Positions 441 to 13,868 of a DNA stretch of 18,141 nt are shown here, piece by piece. Made by a program: the position numbers and the translations under genes. The notes under the pieces are model-generated. The model ran no database searches and was not told where the DNA came from. It saw only the letters and a program-made list of their open reading frames with translations. Location of the stretch: the IMG/VR virus record IMGVR_UViG_2534682108_000010, positions 1-18,141 of that record; one strand, written 5' to 3'. How positions within the stretch are numbered: the first letter of the stretch is position 1; each line of letters begins with the position of its first letter. The stretch comes from a virus. Its lineage: Duplodnaviria; Heunggongvirae; Uroviricota; Caudoviricetes.

Positions 441-540
441 TTATCACAGATGGTAAAAATCAGAACACGATAATAAAAATACCTGATGTATATTCATGCG
501 ACCCGCCCGCCACTCACTGAGGGCTTTTTTTTGCCCATAG

Positions 541-567
541 AAAAGCCCCTCCGGAGAGGGGCTTTTT
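541..567. terminator. Bidirectional intrinsic terminator hairpin
   Basis: gcccctc-cgga-gaggggc hairpin at 545-562 flanked by AAAA on one side and TTTTT on the other. Confidence 0.6.
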
Positions 568-1018
568 ACAGTGGTAGTGTAGACAATTTTGCATGGTGCC
601 GGATGCCTCCCGGTGAATTCTGCAATGACCAGACAGAATCCGCAACTTGCCTATACAATACGCAACCAAACATCTGTCATTATGCCCCGCCTCACAGGGG
701 GATTCACCATGCAAAATCATTTTTAACAAAACAGCATGTTATTCTCCAGTACCCGGCATAATGAAATGTGATGTTCTTAGCATTTTTAAAACCCCGAACT
801 TAGTGGTGATTATTTTTATTAGACACCCCTGTTTCACAGTAACTTTATTTTCTGTTTGGGCCACTCTGGCTCAATACTAAAATTATTAATTATCGACAAA
901 AATATAGTAAATAAATAAACAAGTTCCGAGAAAACCAATAACTATCATTGCTAATGCCAGCATAAATAGTTGTTGTGTGTTTATTTTTACGGTAGTGTAT
1001 TCAAAGTGTTGATTCCTG

Positions 1019-1387
1019 TTATCGCAGGTAATATTCCCGCTCAATAAATGTACCAATCACTTTGTCGTGCATTTCTGTGGATTTCGAATACCCCAGAGTT
1101 TTCCGGTTTAGTCGTTTCAGTCTGTTCCTGAGGTTCAGGTTTTCACGTTCGATGCGTTGCGTATAAAGCTTACCTGTGATGTGTTTTTCATTCGGCAATA
1201 TGTCGTAAGCCCGGAAGTTATCTGTACACCAGAAAGCAACATTAAATCCCGATAACCGCTTCAGTAACTGGCGAAATACCTTTTTACTTCGACGACCAAA
1301 AGCATGGGCAACAATACGTTTGAGACGAGGCTCCCATGCATACCACAGCCAGCGCTGTTGCTTTTTATTGCCGACAAATGACCACAT
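1019..1387 (-). CDS. insB: IS1-family transposase InsB-like ORF (normally expressed as an InsAB' frameshift fusion)
   Basis: Translation ...QRWLWYAWEPRLKRIVAHAFGRR...YTQRIERENLNLRNRLKRLNRKTLGYSKS...HDKVIG aligns by eye with IS1 InsB (QRWLFYAYD...[29 protein letters not shown]...HDKVIG), roughly half identical. Confidence 0.7.
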   Translation of the reverse strand: MWSFVGNKKQQRWLWYAWEPRLKRIVAHAFGRRSKKVFRQLLKRLSGFNVAFWCTDNFRAYDILPNEKHITGKLYTQRIERENLNLRNRLKRLNRKTLGYSKSTEMHDKVIGTFIEREYYLR

Positions 1388-1440
1388 CTCATCAACTTCA
1401 CAGATGAGCTGAATTTTCAGGTCATCCAGCGGCAGTGTGG

Positions 1441-1630
1441 TTACACATCGTGGTGCGAGTTTTTTAATGTGCGCACAACGGCATTAATGCTGATATGCAG
1501 CACCCGTGCGGTGTCACGGATGCCCGCATTGTTCATTGCAAGGTCAACAATTTGCTCTTTCATGCCGTGCTGGCAGGCACGATGATTCGGTTTGCCCACA
1601 AAACGGGCATTTTACGTCAACTTTAGCCAT
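1441..1630 (-). pseudogene. insA: insA-like gene of the IS1-family element, apparently frameshifted
   Basis: ATG at 1628-1630 (rc) gives MAKVDVKCPFCGQTE... which stops after 28 codons; the HTH part (...MKEQIVDLAMNNAGIRDTARVLHISINAVVRTLKNSHHDV, stop 1441-1443) is in a different frame. Confidence 0.5.
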
Positions 1631-1751
1631 TCGCAACACTCAGCAAAAGGAGTAATATTACAACATGATCAACACTTTGAATACTTGCCCATTTTTACCG
1701 ATGAAAGGTAACGCAGAAAAATACTCAACATACAGTCCCCATAATCCTCTA

Positions 1752-1827
1752 TGGAGCGGCCAGCTGGAATCGAACCCGCATCATCAGCCTGGAAGGCCGA
1801 GGTAATAGCCATTATACGATGACCTCA
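1752..1827 (-). tRNA. tRNA-Gly(UCC)-like sequence, probable pseudogene
   Basis: D-arm, anticodon arm (loop CTTCCAG, anticodon UCC) and T-loop closely resemble E. coli glyT, but the 5' acceptor strand (tgaggtc) cannot pair with the 3' strand (tggccgc) and the T-stem has a G-A mismatch. Confidence 0.5.
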
Positions 1828-1904
1828 TGGTGCGCCATACTGGATTCGAACCAGTGACCGATTGCTTAGAAGGCAATTGCTCTGTCAGGCCGAGCTAACA
1901 ACGC
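1828..1904 (-). tRNA. tRNA-Arg (anticodon UCU)
   Basis: Hand-folded cloverleaf: acceptor GCGTTGT/ATGGCGC (with G-U pairs), D-stem GCTC/GAGC, anticodon stem ATTGC/GCAAT with loop CTTCTAA, T-arm ACTGG-TTCGAAT-CCAGT, 3' CCA encoded. Confidence 0.85.
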
Positions 1905-1917
1905 TGAATACCGATAA

Positions 1918-1994
1918 TGGACCGCCATCGGGGACTTGAACCCCGCGCAGCCAGCTTCGAAGGCTGGCGCTCTGTCCCGATGAGCTAATGGCGG
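1918..1994 (-). tRNA. tRNA-Arg (anticodon UCG)
   Basis: Perfect acceptor stem CCGCCAT/ATGGCGG, D-stem GCTC/GAGC, anticodon stem CCAGC/GCTGG with loop CTTCGAA, T-arm CGGGG-TTCAAGT-CCCCG, CCA encoded. Confidence 0.85.
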
Positions 1995-2003
1995 TATCTG
2001 ATA

Positions 2004-2079
2004 TGGTGGCCCTTGCTGGATTTGAACCAGCGACCTGGCGATTATGAGTCGCTCGCTCTCACCACTGAGCTAAAGAGCC
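2004..2079 (-). tRNA. tRNA with CAU anticodon, ileX-like (tRNA-Ile2 / Met-type)
   Basis: Acceptor GGCTCTT/AAGGGCC, D-arm GCTC-AGTGGTGA-GAGC, anticodon loop CTCATAA, T-arm GCTGG-TTCAAAT-CCAGC; from the anticodon arm onward it is nearly identical to my recollection of E. coli ileX. Confidence 0.85.
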
Positions 2080-4445: not shown

Positions 4446-4478
4446 GCTTCACCTCCGCAGAGGTCAAACGCTGGATGC

Positions 4479-4563
4479 AAAAAATCGCAGGTGCATCTCT
4501 GCATCTGTGAAGGGAGAAGAGAGTTTGGATTGTATGTGCGCATAAACGTCCCCGTTTAGCGCA
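4479..4563. repeat. 85-bp direct repeat, copy A
   Basis: 80 of 85 positions identical to 6413-6497; contains a palindromic hairpin tgcgcataaacg-tccc-cgtttagcgca (10-bp stem with 1-nt bulge, tetraloop). Confidence 0.85.
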
Positions 4564-4639: not shown

Positions 4640-5149
4640 TTAGTCTGCCAAGTCTTCCTCAGTCGCAACTGGGTAATTCCAAATATCAAAAAAAGCTATA
4701 GCCTCCTGCCATTTGCTCCATAAGTTATCAAGTACTTGTGTAGGTTCCGTACTTTTAAAAACAGAATCAGCCGCATCACCGTTATGAACTTCCTCGTACA
4801 GTTCCATTATTAGCAGATTAACAAAGTACTGTTTCAACATTAATGCCTGATTACCTTCTTTCTGCTGGCTATCCTGCTTGATGAGCTCCATCGCCCGTAC
4901 TAGGCACCTGATGATATCCGCTGCATCATTAACGCTCCATTCAGATCCGCGCTTATCTTTAGCTGATGAATTGGCTCTCTCAGCGCAAGCCTTTAAAGAC
5001 TCATAAAGGTAAACTCTATTTTGTAGCTGCAGCGCTTTTTTTGACGTGCACCAACTTGCAAGCGCCGACCCCGCTGCGGCTAATGTGCCAAACGCAGAAA
5101 TGCCTGCTGCTATTGCACTTAAGTCGGCACTGTCAAAGTTCCACATCAT
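4640..5149 (-). CDS. Hypothetical protein with hydrophobic N-terminal segment (putative membrane anchor)
   Basis: 169-aa ORF, ATG with AGGTG RBS; N-terminus LSAIAAGISAFGTLAAAGSALASW is hydrophobic; AT-rich; no family recognised. Confidence 0.5.
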   Translation of the reverse strand: MMWNFDSADLSAIAAGISAFGTLAAAGSALASWCTSKKALQLQNRVYLYESLKACAERANSSAKDKRGSEWSVNDAADIIRCLVRAMELIKQDSQQKEGNQALMLKQYFVNLLIMELYEEVHNGDAADSVFKSTEPTQVLDNLWSKWQEAIAFFDIWNYPVATEEDLAD

Positions 5150-5384
5150 CGTTACACCTTATATAAACACCCCTCAGTAATATCCAATAAGGTATGTGAA
5201 CAATCAATATAATTTATATCCGTATCGGCACATAGCGATTTTAATGCTACTGATAATGGTATCTTTTAGATTATATCGTCCAGTTCCAGTACCCGTATTT
5301 TATGAAATGGACTCGCACATTACCAAAAAAAATGCCAGCACTTCCGTCATCGCAGAATGCTGGCAGTATTTCTAACTAGTGACT

Positions 5385-5993
5385 TTATTGCAACAGATTC
5401 TGACGGAAATATGGTAACACACGACTCCACTTATCATCCTGCCACGGTTGGAATTTTACATGCGCCGTTTCTCTGGCAAGGATTTCTCGCGCCCTGTTGA
5501 GTATCCGAGGATATTCTTGTTCGATTGAAGTGAATCTACCTGCTTCGCGATGCTCTGCGACCTGAAGAAGGGGCGTAACGTTCTGGCAGGCGGTTAACAT
5601 CGTATCACTTGCTCGCCATAACCAGGCGAGTGTGCAAAGTTCGTTATCAGTGAATTGTTTTGTGATTGGGGATTGTTGAACTTCTCGATCGAGAATATCC
5701 AGAACCCAGCGGCGGAATTCTTTGGCCACAGGAGTACGAGCAAACATGGCGATCAAATGGGCTCCGCGAAGGCTAAATACTCGAGACTCCTGCATTCCAC
5801 GAGGGGTGGTCACTTTGACCACCCTTGTCATCATATCTGTGAATTCATCCGAGTGCCGAGAGTAAATGCGCTGAACTGCTTTATCGTCCGCATATTCCAG
5901 TGCTAAACCAACTTCAGTGGCAGTAAGCCAAATTCTGTTATTGTGGCAAATCGGGGTAAACGTCGTTTTGTGGAATGCTAATTGAGTAGTCAT
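5385..5993 (-). CDS. Bro-N domain protein (antirepressor / Roi-like)
   Basis: N-terminal region FHKTTFTPICHNNRIWLTATEVGLALEYADDKAV...RVFSLRGAHLIAMFARTPVAKEFRRWVLDIL matches the Bro-N pattern; ATG with GAGGTG RBS. Confidence 0.7.
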   Translation of the reverse strand: MTTQLAFHKTTFTPICHNNRIWLTATEVGLALEYADDKAVQRIYSRHSDEFTDMMTRVVKVTTPRGMQESRVFSLRGAHLIAMFARTPVAKEFRRWVLDILDREVQQSPITKQFTDNELCTLAWLWRASDTMLTACQNVTPLLQVAEHREAGRFTSIEQEYPRILNRAREILARETAHVKFQPWQDDKWSRVLPYFRQNLLQ

Positions 5994-6149
5994 AGTATCA
6001 CCTCATCAGGTTAACCATCACCACCAACGACGCCAATCGACTGGTGGTGAACTGTGTAAGGTTGGCGTAACCGGCTACTCAAACCCGGCGCTTCCGAAGA
6101 AGCCCTCACACAGCCCACCATAATTTGGGCATAGCCGTGCTTAGCGCAC

Positions 6150-6170
6150 AAAAAAACCGCTTAACGCGGT
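6150..6170 (-). terminator. Possible rho-independent terminator (minus strand)
   Basis: Minus strand: accgc-gttaa-gcggt hairpin followed by TTTTTTT. Confidence 0.45.
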
Positions 6171-6412
6171 ATGCGTTGAGTAGTATCCCGGGACGCCAAT
6201 CCCGTGTGCCGATTTTGCGGCAACGCACAGAATATAGCGCCGGATAAATCATGTCGTCAACCCCAGTAAATGGACACCATGATGATCACAGCCATAGCTG
6301 CTACAACAGTTACAACTACCTCAGGCCAAAACATAACGATTTCCATATCACCTTTAGCCGCCAGACGAATAGAGACTCCCAATTCTGGCTGTCGAAGTAA
6401 AACACCGAATGT

Positions 6413-6497
6413 AAAAAATCGTAGGTGCATTTCTGCATCTGTGAATGGAGATGAGAGTTTGGATTGTGTGTGCGCATAAACGTCCCCGTTTAGCGCA
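6413..6497. repeat. 85-bp direct repeat, copy B
   Basis: 80 of 85 positions identical to 4479-4563, with the same internal hairpin. Confidence 0.85.
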
Positions 6498-6805
6498 ACC
6501 CCACCACCGGGTGTTCAGGCCGACAGTAACTATATTATTCCCTACTGATTTTTGAAAATCAAAGGTCTTTATACGTCACACGAGAGCAAATATTTCCGAA
6601 GAAGAAACCTTTCGCCTTGAAAGGATAAAGAGTTCATTTCATAAATTGAAATATTCAATAAGAATATTGCAAAAAATGAAATTATTTACTAGCGAGTCTA
6701 TCTAACTGATAATTATGAAGATTGTAAGCGGTAGCAATCACCCGCATACACATTGAACAGGATTTAATACAAAACGTCTTAAATTGTCCGTAAGGAATAG
6801 CACGA

Positions 6806-8308
6806 ATGACTCAAACTCCTCTATTACTTGCAATCATATTTTTATTGGTTGTTCTTGTTCTTTATATAGCTGCAATCAAACGCATCAAAAAAATACAATT
6901 AGAATTAAGTGATAGCAATCAAAAAAATGAAGAATACAAATCTCGCTTTGCAGATTATTTTAATGTAGAAGAAGAATGTAAGAAGCTTATTGAGAAAACA
7001 GAGCAAGAATGCTCCATAATAAAAGAAGAATCCCTAAAAGTAAAAGAAAATGCCAATAATGAACTAACAAACACCATTGAAAAAATGGATGGTATCAATA
7101 AACAAATCCAAGAGCTAAGAAGAACTTATAAAGAGAAGAAAGAAATATATGATAAACTAGTAAGGCAAATTTCTATTTATTCAGAAGATGTTGAGCTAGC
7201 CGAACTAGGATTTTACGAACCTCATTTTAATTTTGAAGATTCAGAGCAATTTAAAAACAAAATAAAATCCATCAGGGATGAACAGAAATTAATGCTGCGG
7301 GATAAAACCCACTCTGGCGCAGTATATTGTACAACCCAATGGACTGTTGAAGGCTCTCGAGCAGAGGGTAAAAAAATGACAGACAGAAATATCAGGCTAA
7401 CTACTAGAGCATTTAATAATGAATGTGATGCTGCAATTAGCAATTGCACGTGGAAAAACATCACTAAAATGGAAGAACGCATCACAAAGGCATTTGAGGC
7501 CATAAATAAACTAAACGAGCAAAATCACATATATATAAACACTAAATACCTCAATAAAAAACTTGAGGAATTGTGGCTTACCCATGAATATCGTGAGCAA
7601 AAACAGAAAGAAAAAGAAGAACAGGCAGAAATAAGGGCACAAATGAGAGAGGAGGAGCGTGCACAACGAGAAATAGAAAAGGCCATGCAAGACGCAGAGG
7701 CAGAAGAGCGCCGTTATAAAAAAGCAATTGAAGCTGCAAGAAAGGAAATGGAAAAAGTTACTGGTGACATGAAGCAGCGCCTCGAAAATCGCATTGCCGA
7801 ACTAGAACAGAGTTTGTCGCAGGCTGAATCAAAGCATCAAAGAGCATTATCCATGGCACAACAAACCAAACAAGGTCATGTTTATATTATTTCGAACATA
7901 GGTTCTTTTGGGGAGAATGTTTATAAAATAGGCATGACACGACGTCTTGATCCGCAAGACCGTGTAAATGAGCTCGGTGATGCATCTGTTCCTTTTATTT
8001 TTGATGTACATGCCATGATTTATTCGGAGGACGCTCCATCATTAGAAAAAAAACTACATGATGTCTTCGATAAAAAGAGAGTCAATCTTGTAAATCGTAG
8101 AAAAGAGTTTTTCTATGTTACTCTGGATGAGATCAAAGAAGCTGTTAAAAAACACTCTGATTCAGAAATTGAATTTATTGAGACAGCAGTCGCAAAAGAC
8201 TTTAATGAGTCATTGGCTATTCGTAATCATGAAAATAAAAAAAGTGACAACAGCAACTCATCAATTATACCTGAGCGAAAAATCCCAGAGTTTGCAGATG
8301 CAATTTAA
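6806..8308 (+). CDS. Membrane-anchored coiled-coil protein with C-terminal T5orf172 (GIY-YIG-like) domain, DUF4041-type architecture; candidate accessory/defence gene
   Basis: 500-aa ORF, ATG with AAGGA RBS; N-terminal hydrophobic helix LLLAIIFLLVVLVLYIAAI; long K/E-rich predicted coiled-coil; C-terminal GHVYIISNIGSFGENVYKIGMTRRLDPQDRVNELGDASVPFIFDVHAMIYSEDAPSLEKKLHDVFDKKRVN...EFFYV, recalled as the T5orf172 pattern; visibly AT-rich; opposite strand to all neighbouring genes. Confidence 0.8.
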   Translation: MTQTPLLLAIIFLLVVLVLYIAAIKRIKKIQLELSDSNQKNEEYKSRFADYFNVEEECKKLIEKTEQECSIIKEESLKVKENANNELTNTIEKMDGINKQIQELRRTYKEKKEIYDKLVRQISIYSEDVELAELGFYEPHFNFEDSEQFKNKIKSIRDEQKLMLRDKTHSGAVYCTTQWTVEGSRAEGKKMTDRNIRLTTRAFNNECDAAISNCTWKNITKMEERITKAFEAINKLNEQNHIYINTKYLNKKLEELWLTHEYREQKQKEKEEQAEIRAQMREEERAQREIEKAMQDAEAEERRYKKAIEAARKEMEKVTGDMKQRLENRIAELEQSLSQAESKHQRALSMAQQTKQGHVYIISNIGSFGENVYKIGMTRRLDPQDRVNELGDASVPFIFDVHAMIYSEDAPSLEKKLHDVFDKKRVNLVNRRKEFFYVTLDEIKEAVKKHSDSEIEFIETAVAKDFNESLAIRNHENKKSDNSNSSIIPERKIPEFADAI

Positions 8309-8556
8309 TTAATTTGTAGTAGCAATAAAGCAGGCATCGTTGAGAATATTTTGTCAGCGATGCTTACTTCTCTAACAAAAACGGTGATTACCAACGAACT
8401 AACGGACTTCAGGTAATCATAAGACAAATGGAACGACTCTCCGGTGATTAGATCCCTGCAATAACAGTAATTTTCTACTAACTGAAAAATCTTTAACTGC
8501 CGCTCCTATTTCTAAGCTGACTGCTAGATTACATGGTGTGTTACCGATGAAAACCG

Positions 8557-8859
8557 TCACAGCAAGTTTAAGTTCATATCTCCATACACTGCCAACACTC
8601 GTTTCATCGCGGCACTCTGGCGACACTCCTTGAAAATCAGATTCGTGCTCACCTTTCCTTCCCGTTCTTCCCTGGTAGCGAAGCGGTAATACACCGTTCG
8701 CCAGACCTTACCATCAATGACTAAGATTCCTGCCCGTGCCATTTTAGCCGCAGCCTGATTTATACTGGTTACTGTTGCGCCTGTTACCGCAGCAACGTCC
8801 TGCGCACAGAAGCTCTTATGCGTCCCCAGGTAATGAATAATTGCCTCTTTGCCCGTCAT
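8557..8859 (-). CDS. ren: Ren-like protein
   Basis: Translation MTGKEAIIHYLGTHKSFCAQDVAAVTGATVTSINQAAAKMARAGILVIDGKVWRTVYYRFATREEREGK... recognised as lambda Ren; ATG overlaps the P stop. Confidence 0.8.
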   Translation of the reverse strand: MTGKEAIIHYLGTHKSFCAQDVAAVTGATVTSINQAAAKMARAGILVIDGKVWRTVYYRFATREEREGKVSTNLIFKECRQSAAMKRVLAVYGDMNLNLL

Positions 8860-9557
8860 ACAGTTGCTCCTTTCAGTCCGAACTTCGCTTTGATTTCTGC
8901 GATCTTCGCCAGAGCCTGTGCACGATTTAGAGGTCTACCGCCCATGACAGGAAGTTGTTTTACTGGTTCAGGTATAGCCTCACCACGGTTAATTCGTGCG
9001 GTCATACAGGACAGTTCATCGGCAGCCTTGCGCCGTAATTCCGCGTCAGTCAACGCATTGGTCCGCATGTTCTGGTACAGGTTGGTAACCAACCAGTAGT
9101 GCGCGTTTGATTTCCACGGATAAGACTCTGCGTCCGGATACAGGCCACGCTTCCGGCAATACTCGTAAACCATATCAACCAGCTCGCTGGCGTTTGGCAG
9201 CCCGGCGGTAACGGATGCTTCTTCCCGGCACCAGGCAACAAACTGCCCGGGTGATGGCAGGAATGGTCGATTCTGCCGACGGGCTACGCGCATTCCTGCG
9301 TTAACCTGTTCCATTGTGGTGATCCCGTTTTCCCGGAAAGCCAGAACCCACTGGCGGCGGATTTCGTTCAGTTCGTTCTGATCCCGGTTAGCCAGGCTCG
9401 CAGGGAAAGTTGCCAGTAACTGGCTGAACACACCGTTGATGATCTGCGCTACCTGCTGTACCTGCGGCTTTTCGTCGTACTGTTCCGGCATATTGTTGGC
9501 GATCCGGCGCATCTGCTCACGGTCAAAGTTAATCATCTGTGCGGCGATGTTTTTCAT
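8856..9557 (-). CDS. P: Replication protein P (DnaB helicase loader)
   Basis: 233-aa translation MKNIAAQMINFDREQMRRIANNMPEQYDEKPQVQQVAQIINGVFSQLLATF... essentially identical to lambda P as I recall it. Confidence 0.95.
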   Translation of the reverse strand: MKNIAAQMINFDREQMRRIANNMPEQYDEKPQVQQVAQIINGVFSQLLATFPASLANRDQNELNEIRRQWVLAFRENGITTMEQVNAGMRVARRQNRPFLPSPGQFVAWCREEASVTAGLPNASELVDMVYEYCRKRGLYPDAESYPWKSNAHYWLVTNLYQNMRTNALTDAELRRKAADELSCMTARINRGEAIPEPVKQLPVMGGRPLNRAQALAKIAEIKAKFGLKGATV

Positions 9558-11367: not shown

Positions 11368-11477
11368 TATCAATTCCTATTGGTATTGCAATGAATGAAT
11401 AATAGCAATGCGTATTAATCCAAGCAATAGCAAAACGTGTTTTGACCATCAATACGCAAGCGTATAAATTAAAACTT
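11368..11477. promoter_or_regulatory. Immunity control region (OR-like): divergent promoters and operator repeats
   Basis: Minus-strand promoter TTGCTT-17 bp-TATTAT (-10 at 11399-11404, rc) for the Cro-like gene; plus-strand TTGACC (11442-11447)-15 bp-TATAAA (11463-11468) just upstream of the repressor ATG (11478), so the leader is very short; repeated AATAGCAAT/TATTGC motifs and a 14-bp palindrome ATACGCAAGCGTAT. Confidence 0.6.
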
Positions 11478-12170
11478 ATGAAAAAAGAAACTCTTGCTGA
11501 TCGCTTAAACCTAGCGATGGAACAATCTGGAATGTCTCAAGGCGCTCTTGCAAAGGCGTCTGGCGTAGCTCAACCCACAATCTGGAGACTGACAAGCGGC
11601 AACGCGCGCGGCTCAACAAAAATTGTTGAAATAGCTAATGCATTGGGTGTTCGAACAGAATGGCTCTCATCAGGCATAGGCCCGATGAGAAATGACGGTC
11701 AACAATCAGGGAAGCCTGCTGTCAGCCATTCCAAATACTTCAAAATTGACGTTCTTGATATAGAAGTCAGTGCCGGGCCGGGTGTAATCAACCGTGAGTT
11801 TGTAGAAGTTCTACGCTCGGTTGAGTACTCGTTTGACGATGCTCGTCACATGTTCGATGGCAGGAAGGCGGAAAATATCCGCATCATTAACGTGCGTGGT
11901 GACAGCATGTCAGGAACGATCGAACCAGGTGATCTGCTGTTCGTTGATATCACGGTTAAATCTTTCGACGGTGATGGTATCTATGCGTTTCTGTACGACG
12001 ACACAGCCCATGTAAAGCGTCTGCAAATGATGAAGGATAAGCTGCTGGTTATCTCTGATAACAAGAGCTACTCACCGTGGGACCCGATCGAGAAAGACGA
12101 GATGAACCGGGTGTTCATCTTCGGTAAGGTTATTGGGAGCATGCCGCAGACGTATAGGAAGCATGGGTAG
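11478..12170 (+). CDS. CI-like repressor (HTH plus S24 LexA-like autopeptidase domain)
   Basis: From ATG 11478: MKKETLADRLNLAMEQSGMSQGALAKASGVAQPTIWRL... (HTH); C-terminal VRGDSMSGTIEPGD and HVKRL recalled as the S24 Ser/Lys pattern; the ORF-track start at 11442 is a TTG. Confidence 0.85.
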   Translation: MKKETLADRLNLAMEQSGMSQGALAKASGVAQPTIWRLTSGNARGSTKIVEIANALGVRTEWLSSGIGPMRNDGQQSGKPAVSHSKYFKIDVLDIEVSAGPGVINREFVEVLRSVEYSFDDARHMFDGRKAENIRIINVRGDSMSGTIEPGDLLFVDITVKSFDGDGIYAFLYDDTAHVKRLQMMKDKLLVISDNKSYSPWDPIEKDEMNRVFIFGKVIGSMPQTYRKHG

Positions 12171-12216: not shown

Positions 12217-13065
12217 ATGTCTTCGATTTGGGGAAAAAAGTTGATGACGAAAGAACAAGAGTCAAACACTGATGAAGTGAAACCAGAGCAAGGAAGTTTG
12301 TTTGAATTAGAATTTCATGAATATACACCTTCAAGCTTAGGCACAGCACACCTTTCTGGTTTCGCTATTGCCACTGATGAAATGGAATATGCAGTTAAAA
12401 GCATGCGCTCCACCCCACCTTTTCCTGTACAAAACCCAACTCAAGTACCGGCAGCGGAATGGTTTTGCACAAATTTAGCTGAAAAATGCGGCATCGCTAC
12501 ACCTGTGTGCAAAATTCTCAAGTGTATTGCTAATGGGGAGTATGTTTTTGGCTCTCGCATAGAGTTTTCAGCCTGGAAATCTGGTCTCAATAGTCCTCAA
12601 TGGATAAATTTGCTCTCAAATGCTTCTGAATCCTTAAAGAAGCAACTCTGGGCAATTTATGCATTTGATCAGTTTGTATATAACATTGACAGACACCTCA
12701 ACAACTACTTATACATGGAAAACACCCGAGGCAATGTTATAGTTAAAACATTCGATTTTAGTCTAAGCTCTTTTGTTATAGGCTGGCCACGAAATACCCC
12801 TCATATACTACCAACAGACTCCAGTACAACAACAAACTGGACGATTGCTAAACAATTCATTGGCGACACTGATGATCTGAGAAAGTGCGCATTATCTGTC
12901 CTTGACAAAATTGAAAAAATTGGAGTTGAGGCTATATCTGATATACTTAACTCTATGCCTGAAGCATGGATGCCACCAATGCATAAGGAGTATTTTTTGA
13001 AGTGGTGGGACAGCGAGGAGCGAATCGATAGGCTAAATGCCATAAGACTGGAGATAACATCTTGA
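12217..13065 (+). CDS. Hypothetical protein with kinase-like catalytic-loop motif (HipA / PI3-PI4-kinase-like); candidate defence gene A
   Basis: 282-aa ORF 46 bp downstream of the repressor, AAGAGG RBS; motif NIDRHLNN followed 21 residues later by FDFS resembles the N-x-D-x-H-x-x-N ... D catalytic pattern of HipA-type kinases; AT-rich. Confidence 0.75.
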   Translation: MSSIWGKKLMTKEQESNTDEVKPEQGSLFELEFHEYTPSSLGTAHLSGFAIATDEMEYAVKSMRSTPPFPVQNPTQVPAAEWFCTNLAEKCGIATPVCKILKCIANGEYVFGSRIEFSAWKSGLNSPQWINLLSNASESLKKQLWAIYAFDQFVYNIDRHLNNYLYMENTRGNVIVKTFDFSLSSFVIGWPRNTPHILPTDSSTTTNWTIAKQFIGDTDDLRKCALSVLDKIEKIGVEAISDILNSMPEAWMPPMHKEYFLKWWDSEERIDRLNAIRLEITS

Positions 13066-13868
13066 AAACTTTCAAATACAGCTTAATCAGAGTTACACCG
13101 AACTTAGAGAAAGGTGAAACGATTAACGTTGGTTTGATCGTTTACCATGACTCTGACATAGACGTACGTATGCTCAATTCAGTTTCAAAACTTAAAGCGA
13201 TTGACAAAGATCTTACCTTAGATTACTTAGAGGATCTTTCGACCTCGCTTTTTGATTTGTCACAAAAAATCAACAATGCTGAACTTCTTCCTTGTCTTTT
13301 TAAGGGAGCATTATCGTTATCGTCATTTGGCATGTTCACTCTTCAAGCCAACGAAGATTACGAAGCTAAAGTTACTGATCTAATGAATCGGTTAGTAAAC
13401 CCACAAAAACAGCCACATAAACAGTTGAAAAAAAAGGTTTTTTCTGAATTAAAATCCACCTTTATACAACATGGAATTTTCAGTAAGTATTTTGAAGATC
13501 TTTCCCAACATAAAATCGTAGCTAATTATCCAATTAGTAATGAAGAAGGGTTAGTTGCAGATTTTTTGTTAAAAAATGGCAAATACCATCTTACAGAAAC
13601 ATTAGATTTTCGTTCTGAAAATATAAAAAAACAAATGGGTGAAGCTGCGATAAGTGTTTTAACAATTACTAAAGCCTACGAATTATACAATTCAAATATT
13701 GATTCATTTGTAATTTTTGCCGCTGAAACGACAGCACAAGAAAAGTCAGCAAAACAGCAGCTAAATCTACTGGAAAAACACGCTGATAATCTTATCAACG
13801 CATATAGCAAAGAAGACATGCGTTCATATTACGAAAAGATGCTGAATGCTGCCTCTATGTTACAGTAG
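13062..13868 (+). CDS. Hypothetical protein, partner of the kinase-like gene; candidate defence gene B
   Basis: 268-aa ORF whose TTG start overlaps the upstream stop (TTGA), GGAG RBS 8 nt upstream; N-terminus MKTFKYSLIRVTPNLEKGETINVGLIVYHD; followed by terminator 13896-13922; AT-rich. Confidence 0.75.
   Translation: MKTFKYSLIRVTPNLEKGETINVGLIVYHDSDIDVRMLNSVSKLKAIDKDLTLDYLEDLSTSLFDLSQKINNAELLPCLFKGALSLSSFGMFTLQANEDYEAKVTDLMNRLVNPQKQPHKQLKKKVFSELKSTFIQHGIFSKYFEDLSQHKIVANYPISNEEGLVADFLLKNGKYHLTETLDFRSENIKKQMGEAAISVLTITKAYELYNSNIDSFVIFAAETTAQEKSAKQQLNLLEKHADNLINAYSKEDMRSYYEKMLNAASMLQ

Follow-up and report, generated by a model that had tools for sequence, protein, structure and literature searches.

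The gene at positions 6,806 to 8,308 on the plus strand of the window, the 18,141-nucleotide stretch of viral DNA analyzed here, is very probably SNIPE/PD-λ-1, a cargo gene with its own transcription that occupies the ren-nin slot of a lambdoid prophage. The allele is almost identical to a gene whose mechanism has been published in detail, and is in this sense already known. PD-λ-1 was recovered from ECOR26 by Vassallo et al. 2022 (PMC9519451) and was renamed SNIPE by Saxton et al. (bioRxiv 2025; Nature 2026;653:861, PMC13190303), such that both its discovery (2022) and its explanation (Nature 2026) were made with essentially the same gene as that of the window. The original prediction, of a single-gene, prophage-borne factor which excludes other phages, was right; since the encoded protein matches the experimentally demonstrated SNIPE/PD-λ-1 at 499 of 500 residues, the observation is correct but not new. 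The accompanying statement, that this architecture had no characterized function, is out of date in view of the description of PD-λ-1 (PMC9519451) and of its mechanism as SNIPE (PMC13190303).

The assignment is based on profile matches, on published residues and primers, and on a sequenced phage. The window protein matches the PADLOC PD-Lambda-1 model PDLC03976 with an E-value of 1.9e-198, covering positions 1-485 of the 491 in the model, as well as model PDLC03977 (E 7.5e-195), and it matches PHROG 1847 over its full length. All nine published SNIPE residues that were compared (E414, E223, W257, L253, E264, K305, I308, T319 and N250) are found at identical positions. Exact matches to the window are given by 28 published SNIPE primers, which together cover 538 nt, 500 of them inside the open reading frame, and the primer mismatches comprise engineered changes and one natural difference, at window position 8283, with no others. 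The ECOR26 gene resides on contig QOXL01000020 (49060-50562; protein RCP76574.1) and measures 1,503 bp (PMC9519451), precisely the length of the window gene. Its reported HHpred domains, DUF4041 at 197-252, T5orf172 at 357-448 and MUG113 at 373-449 (PMC9519451), have essentially the same coordinates as those found by Pfam for the window protein. The identity to the cloned RCP76574.1 gene is inferred from the primers, which cover about one third of the open reading frame, together with the gene of the temperate phage ΦR26.1.

This phage (PV340555.1), an isolate of Brenes & Laub, was also employed in the SNIPE paper (PMC13190303); its name and its isolation by these authors suggest that it originates from ECOR26. 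Its gene, annotated as "PD-lambda-1", codes for a protein that shares 499 of 500 residues (99.8%) with the window protein, and over window positions 6300-8900 the two sequences differ at four nucleotides, one of them in the open reading frame. The latter is the T at position 8283, which is C both in primer oDS31 and in ΦR26.1; it is the only coding difference found, and places Ile493 in the window protein against Thr493 in that of ΦR26.1. The window gene further shares with ΦR26.1/ECOR26 PD-λ-1 the flanks on both sides and the context P-ren / SNIPE / Rha-ybcN-…-Q. The two prophages diverge beyond this region: a HipA-like and DUF3037 pair follows the repressor in the window prophage, whereas a lipoprotein gene does so in ΦR26.1, and downstream of Q the former carries tRNAs and a sialate O-acetylesterase gene, the latter a porin gene.

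The exact window protein is public as WP_000195115.1 and occurs on at least 39 contigs according to an exact-sequence cluster look-up, yet its record bears only the name "DUF4041 domain-containing protein". Recent RefSeq naming of IS-split copies reads "SNIPE associated domain-containing protein". In many database records the SNIPE protein is labelled merely by its DUF4041 domain or, wrongly, as a "chromosome segregation ATPase"; the useful outcome for a genome scan is thus the correct label for the gene.

The open reading frame begins with ATG, codes for 500 amino acids and is preceded by a Shine-Dalgarno sequence, AAGGA, at 6792-6796, 9 nt ahead of the start codon. From its own base composition, the probability of 500 codons free of stops is 2.6e-18, and in 500 shuffles of the island 6498-8592 the longest stop-free stretch averaged 90 codons, with a maximum of 169, versus the 504 observed. 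The gene has a GC content of 0.351 (GC3 0.28), and the island as measured over 6520-8420 has a GC content of 0.348, compared to 0.470 in the rest of the window. In the annotation of a 100%-identical chromosome of E. coli O157:H16, the gene is bordered on the right by ren, P, O, a YdaT-domain gene and a cro-like gene, and on the left by a Bro-N/P22AR_C gene, a hypothetical gene, ybcN, ninE, ybcO, rusA, ylcG and Q, all of these neighbors being minus-strand genes. The SNIPE gene hence sits within the early-right operon of a lambdoid prophage, in antisense orientation. The open-reading-frame call and this annotation confirm the earlier description of a 500-residue plus-strand frame within a minus-strand O-P-ren…nin…Q operon, and the difference in GC content (0.35 against 0.47) bears out that of an AT-rich, opposite-strand insert between ren and the nin genes. 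The features of the region are collected in Table 1.

Table 1. Coordinates of the SNIPE gene, its predicted protein segments and its surroundings in the window
Feature	Positions	Strand	Remarks
Left junction	6394-6497		Second copy of window 4460-4563, 89% identical; common to SNIPE-less prophages
SNIPE cassette, low-GC island in the ren-nin slot	6498-8592		Breakpoints relative to six SNIPE-less prophages; about 2.1 kb
AT-rich upstream region	6498-6805	+	Presumed native promoter and ribosome-binding site
SNIPE/PD-λ-1 coding sequence	6806-8308	+	500 aa and stop; assigned by PADLOC, PHROG, residues, primers and ΦR26.1
Single transmembrane helix (predicted)	6821-6877	+	Residues ~6-24; N-terminus short and external, KRIKK facing the cytoplasm
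N-terminal long helix, "adapter" region	6878-7204	+	Residues 25-133; poorly conserved
Globular DUF4041 domain	7238-7585	+	Residues ~145-260; Pfam match 198-252 = nt 7397-7561
Helical linker	7586-7870	+	Residues 261-355; E/K/R/Q/A-rich
GIY-YIG (T5orf172/MUG113) nuclease domain	7874-8248	+	Residues 357-481; codon of catalytic Glu414 at 8045-8047
Codon 493	8282-8284	+	ATC (Ile) here; ACC (Thr) in the characterized clone and ΦR26.1
Stable stem-loop directly after the stop codon	8309-8385	+	RNA MFE -22.9 kcal/mol
ren, right-hand neighbor	8557-8859	-	"Protein ren" in the identical record; cassette boundary 36 nt inside its 3' end

The predicted anatomy of the protein agrees with that of SNIPE. Its sole strongly hydrophobic segment, MTQTPLLLAIIFLLVVLVLYIAAIKRIKK, reaches a Kyte-Doolittle mean of 3.37 over 19 residues and is followed by KRIKK; a hydrophobic N-terminal segment is likewise present in 46 of the 47 aligned homologs. 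Judged by its sequence, the window protein would possess the N-terminal membrane-targeting element of the SNIPE family. In an AlphaFold2 model based on 47 homologs (50-58% identity; mean pLDDT 78), a helix extends from the membrane segment as far as residue 133, and a globular domain, a helical linker and an α/β C-terminal domain follow. The helices of the N-terminal part span residues 6-47 and 54-133, and consensus in the homolog alignment is low over residues 25-133. The DUF4041 block (~145-260) is modeled as a confident globular domain, with pLDDT values of 93-98, and includes the Pfam match to PF13250 (E 1.2e-19; 70.4 bits against a 27-bit cut-off). The linker, modeled as helices 246-317 and 321-355, is composed of 22% E, 12% K, 12% R, 13% Q and 14% A, and the long helices 6-133 and 246-355 have combined E, K, R and Q fractions of 45-59%.

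The C-terminal part is matched by T5orf172 (357-449, E 6.9e-17) and by MUG113 (373-449, E 7e-19) in Pfam. The motif residues of the GIY-YIG superfamily can be recognized as HVY360I, Y373-K-I-G376, R379/R380, E414 and N427/N430, and are invariant across 47 sequences except for Y373, which is Y or F; the protein is accordingly a member of this superfamily by its motifs, and its C-terminal domain as modeled is similar in three-dimensional fold to solved GIY-YIG nucleases. A fold search with the whole model returned long-helix proteins only. No solved relative turned up in the PDB by sequence or profile search, the matches being weak coiled-coil noise, and a search of NCBIfam with the window protein found no meaningful family. 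The hydropathy profile, the model and Pfam together uphold the membrane anchor, the E/K-rich helical region and the DUF4041 plus T5orf172 arrangement which had been recognized from the sequence.

The names "chromosome segregation ATPase" and "ParA" are found on homolog records, and by these the protein would be an ATPase of the SMC/ParA type. Weak similarity to SMC-related, LmuB and JetC coiled coils is indeed seen in NCBIfam and PADLOC, yet these matches are confined to the E/K-rich helices, scoring 18.6 bits against a cut-off of 300 bits and PADLOC E-values of 0.04-0.3, and no ATPase domain is found by Pfam. The probability of this reading is regarded as close to nil. The candidate was rejected, with neither Walker motifs nor an ATPase domain detected in the window protein.

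The mechanism of SNIPE has been published for an allele which differs from that of the window at one residue (Thr493). For the Thr493 allele, protection against λ and other siphoviruses has been shown (PMC9519451, PMC13190303), and SNIPE is described as a nuclease of the inner membrane that, with ManYZ and the tape measure protein as its guides, cuts the DNA of siphoviruses while it is being injected (PMC13190303). Adsorption is unaffected by SNIPE, and the appearance of the λ genome in the cell is about 30-fold lower in its presence; 32P-labelled λ DNA is taken up equally and is degraded to a smear in cells with SNIPE, an effect reversed by E414A, and an induced λ prophage is unaffected (PMC13190303). 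According to PhoA and LacZα fusions, the N-terminus is periplasmic and the remainder cytoplasmic; by proximity labelling the protein is linked to ManYZ before infection and, while infection proceeds, to the tape measure protein (PMC13190303). The N-terminal region (25-133) is proposed to associate with ManYZ, and DUF4041 is required for defence and binds DNA or promotes DNA binding; E223K and W257R in this domain retune the specificity towards Bas14-18, and phage escapers of SNIPE map to the tape measure protein (PMC13190303).

By analogy, membrane tethering would keep the GIY-YIG nuclease of the window protein away from the chromosome, and its N-terminal region would associate with the mannose permease ManYZ, the DNA entry route of λ-like phages. 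During infection the DUF4041 domain would contact the phage tape measure protein and DNA, whereupon the nuclease would cut the phage genome in the course of its injection. DNA present in the cell beforehand, for instance that of an induced prophage, would be spared. A copy of SNIPE carried by a prophage would shield both the host and the resident prophage against superinfection by siphoviruses and leave the prophage's own induction unharmed. SNIPE is of biological importance in that it tells self from non-self by location, with cleavage confined to DNA crossing the membrane, rather than by sequence or modification. The SNIPE of the window may be taken as a nucleolytic form of superinfection exclusion. 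The earlier suggestion of superinfection exclusion was close in spirit, because the block occurs at genome entry and the gene is carried by a prophage, and departs from the published data in that the mechanism is nucleolytic.

The same cannot be said of the other role originally suggested, an abortive-infection toxin whose nuclease is unleashed on host DNA after infection, such that the cell dies to protect its kin. Abortive infection is the mode of many single-gene prophage nucleases, and SNIPE deprived of its transmembrane helix shows high toxicity and introduces double-strand breaks into the host chromosome (PMC13190303). Host DNA tethered to the membrane is nevertheless left uncut, and labelled λ DNA is degraded at equal uptake; the SNIPE paper describes PD-λ-1 as a direct defence system and not as abortive infection, since infected cells survive (PMC13190303). 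The published data on survival and on degradation of the incoming DNA contradict the suggestion, which is thereby largely refuted already for the Thr493 allele and is considered very improbable for the gene of the window.

Several known systems resemble SNIPE in part. HK97 gp15 is also a prophage "moron" and an inner-membrane protein that blocks incoming siphovirus genomes, and its block, like that of SNIPE, is linked to the tape measure protein and to inner-membrane host factors, yet it lacks a nuclease domain, whereas SNIPE destroys the DNA via its GIY-YIG nuclease. Zorya and Kiwa are likewise active at the membrane, where the phage genome is injected or close by, but they are multi-protein systems which sense envelope perturbation, in contrast to SNIPE, whose single polypeptide takes its guidance from ManYZ and the tape measure protein.

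In six out of six SNIPE-less lambdoid prophages compared, homology to the window breaks on the left at 6497; on the right it restarts at 8593 in the comparators which bear ren, and at 8792-8846 where ren is missing. These breakpoints delimit the cassette to 6498-8592. Terminal direct or inverted repeats around the cassette were not found beyond short matches at chance level, and a transposon- or integron-like signature is hence absent. Of 5,426 complete E. coli genomes, 131 carry the cassette, compared to 3,366-3,659 genomes in which the flanks are matched. In the six comparators, the ren-nin slot is occupied by cargo other than SNIPE that shares its left breakpoint. The cargo found in the slot elsewhere comprises a HEPN protein with a partner, a plus-strand VCH_CASS14-type protein, a PRTase-CE and NADAR pair, a GNAT gene with Arc-family genes, small hypothetical genes, and emrE with ybcK, which is the arrangement of DLP12 in K-12. 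The cassette itself is found on different prophage backbones: the prophage in the identical genome adjoins a truncated ynfG, and strain LR-45 has the cassette within a degraded element resembling DLP12, next to tRNA-Arg and fimZ, and SNIPE there abuts a truncated integrase.

By its presence and absence, its GC content and its own orientation, the gene is a horizontally exchanged prophage cargo, or "moron", at a variable slot. The earlier reading of a horizontally acquired accessory gene of variable presence stands on the comparison of ren-nin junctions in the six comparators and on the count of 131 among 5,426 genomes, since the gene is not uniformly present with matching GC content. The window adds to the published record a second prophage backbone and integration site with the same 2.1-kb cassette, as well as the natural Ile493 allele, and clearly marks out the ren-nin slot as a site at which cargo of the defence type is exchanged among lambdoid prophages.

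The sharp and recurrent left breakpoint, together with the presence/absence polymorphism of the cassette, might also be expected of a selfish element resembling a homing endonuclease, whereby the T5orf172 nuclease would spread by cutting ren-nin junctions free of the cassette. One report describes T5orf172 domains in phage homing endonucleases at boundaries of genetic exchange (PMC10448857). Many unrelated, non-nuclease cargos in the slot share the same left breakpoint, however, and the boundary therefore belongs to the slot and not to the SNIPE gene. The membrane anchor and DUF4041 are foreign to homing endonucleases; phage T5orf172/GIY-YIG homing endonucleases (e.g., of ICP1) and Slx1-type nucleases possess neither, and serve selfish mobility or DNA repair, unlike SNIPE, for which an anti-phage function dependent on membrane tethering has been demonstrated in the literature. 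There is thus very little probability that the gene is a selfish homing element, and the reading as defence cargo is retained.

As cargo, SNIPE is expected to be expressed in the lysogen, because it is oriented against the repressed PR operon and possesses its own AT-rich upstream region; such expression would be specific to the lysogen. A candidate sigma-70-like promoter, TTTACT-17-GATAAT, lies at 6685-6713 as a match to the consensus only, and the scans for promoters and terminators gave consensus-level matches in numbers close to shuffle expectation. PD-λ-1 was functional once cloned with its native promoter, on a fragment that reached 62 and 282 bp beyond the gene (PMC9519451). The stem-loop behind the stop codon possibly marks the end of the transcript, a role that can only be inferred since no T-run lies 3' of the stem-loop and the terminator scan missed it. 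The head-on orientation relative to the PR operon could allow transcriptional interference to switch SNIPE off once the carrier prophage is induced.

The last part of the protein, behind a variable linker of low model confidence, contains a conserved tail motif, K-x-P-x-F-A-[DE]-x-[IL], in which Phe496 is invariant in the 47 homologs (50-58% identity). Ile493, the sole difference from the characterized allele, falls within this motif. Residue 493 is variable among the 47 homologs (Q, L, I, E, V, A), and from its sequence the Ile493 allele would be expected to behave like the Thr493 allele. A functionally altered SNIPE, weaker or having a different phage range, is improbable: single substitutions elsewhere in the protein strongly shift specificity, and position 493 does lie inside a conserved motif, yet it is a variable "x" of that motif, occupied by Ile in 7 of the 47 homologs. 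Moreover, the very protein of the window is carried on at least 39 contigs, robust defence is kept by C-terminal GFP fusions, and the known specificity mutations are located in DUF4041 and the linker, with none in the tail.

No discussion of the tail motif was found in the SNIPE paper (PMC13190303). The proposal that the motif is an undescribed functional element and that, separately, the head-on orientation could switch SNIPE off after induction, is offered as a rather unlikely one. Membrane-bound SNIPE has been reported to be in an "auto-inhibited" state (PMC13190303); the tail motif could be a determinant of this state, or a docking peptide for a partner.

The slot between ren and the nin genes, which in the window holds the cassette of the membrane-anchored nuclease SNIPE, is filled at two loci in other prophages (L002 and L003, one O157:H7 strain among them) by a different opposite-strand gene, whose 115-aa product belongs to VCH_CASS14, an integron-cassette family. 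Self-contained opposite-strand cargo therefore recurs in the ren-nin slot. Adjoining the SNIPE cassette, and outside it, is an RNA-controlled antirepressor module, in which the C4 antisense RNA and isrK (6040-6222) lie immediately upstream of a Bro-N/P22AR_C gene. Copies of a direct repeat flank this antirepressor-like module (4640-6390) on both sides; the repeat, which overlaps a small annotated ORF and is present in one or two copies in prophages lacking SNIPE, appears to be a junction at which cargo modules recombine. The AT-rich upstream region of the SNIPE cassette also contains a terminator-like hairpin on the strand of the PR operon. To reach the nin genes, read-through from PR has to traverse 1.5 kb of antisense SNIPE and, after it, the hairpin.

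Features located in the window or, where a locus is named, in other prophages
Feature	Position	Strand	Evidence or remark
STnc100 sRNA match	533-739	-	141.6 bits
IS1 transposase	~1019-1630	-	frameshifted
Four tRNA matches	1755-2079	-	
Direct repeat, ~104 bp	4460-4563 and 6394-6497		copies 89% identical
Bro-N/P22AR_C (Rha/antirepressor-like) gene	5385-5993	-	
C4 antisense RNA	6040-6125	-	Rfam, 74.8 bits
isrK	6150-6222	-	Rfam, 58.7 bits
Terminator-like hairpin	6608-6624	-	T-rich tail
SNIPE tail, residues 482-500	8249-8305	+	alignment of 47 homologs
cI-like repressor	11442-12170		
VCH_CASS14 gene in ren-nin slot	L002 2934-3281; L003 1628-1975	+	Pfam E 5.8e-20

A candidate defence pair lies directly 3' of the cI-like repressor, in the position occupied by rexAB in λ, where two overlapping genes of low GC content (12217-13868, plus strand; GC 0.31-0.39) code for a protein of 282 aa with weak HipA_2/HipA_C kinase matches and one of 268 aa with DUF3037 at its N-terminus. 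The pair resembles DS-6/'HipAD', a HipA-kinase and DUF3037 system recently validated in defence (PMC13092281), and in PADLOC the pair has only weak matches, to PDC-M66A/B and PDC-M03A. In the temperate phage ΦR26.1, a lipoprotein gene fills this slot instead.

An insertion sequence splits the SNIPE gene in some E. coli genomes, ISEc48 in NZ_OY754364.1 and IS5 in NZ_CM144251.1 and NZ_OZ392478.1, and these copies are presumably inactivated. Strain LR-45 (NZ_AP027532.1, 5001-8958) carries, next to tRNA-Arg/fimZ, a degraded DLP12-like prophage from which the immunity region and the genes ren, P and O are gone; its SNIPE gene (WP_000195116.1) is intact beside a truncated integrase, which suggests that the defence gene has been kept while its prophage decays.

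At the protein level, SNIPE ends in a conserved nine-residue motif, K-x-P-x-F-A-[DE]-x-[IL], preceded by a variable, low-confidence stretch. F496 is invariant among the 47 homologs aligned, A497 is shared by 43 and P494 by 42. The alignment with more distant phage homologs ends at about residue 472. We found no mention of this tail in the paper describing SNIPE (PMC13190303), and fusions carrying GFP at the C-terminus are still active.

The STnc100 and tRNA matches and the IS1 transposase (533-2079, minus strand) all lie downstream of Q, in a layout resembling the Q-to-lysis region of Stx-type lambdoid prophages; three of the four tRNA matches are annotated, as Arg, Arg and Ile, in the identical E. 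coli O157:H16 chromosome.
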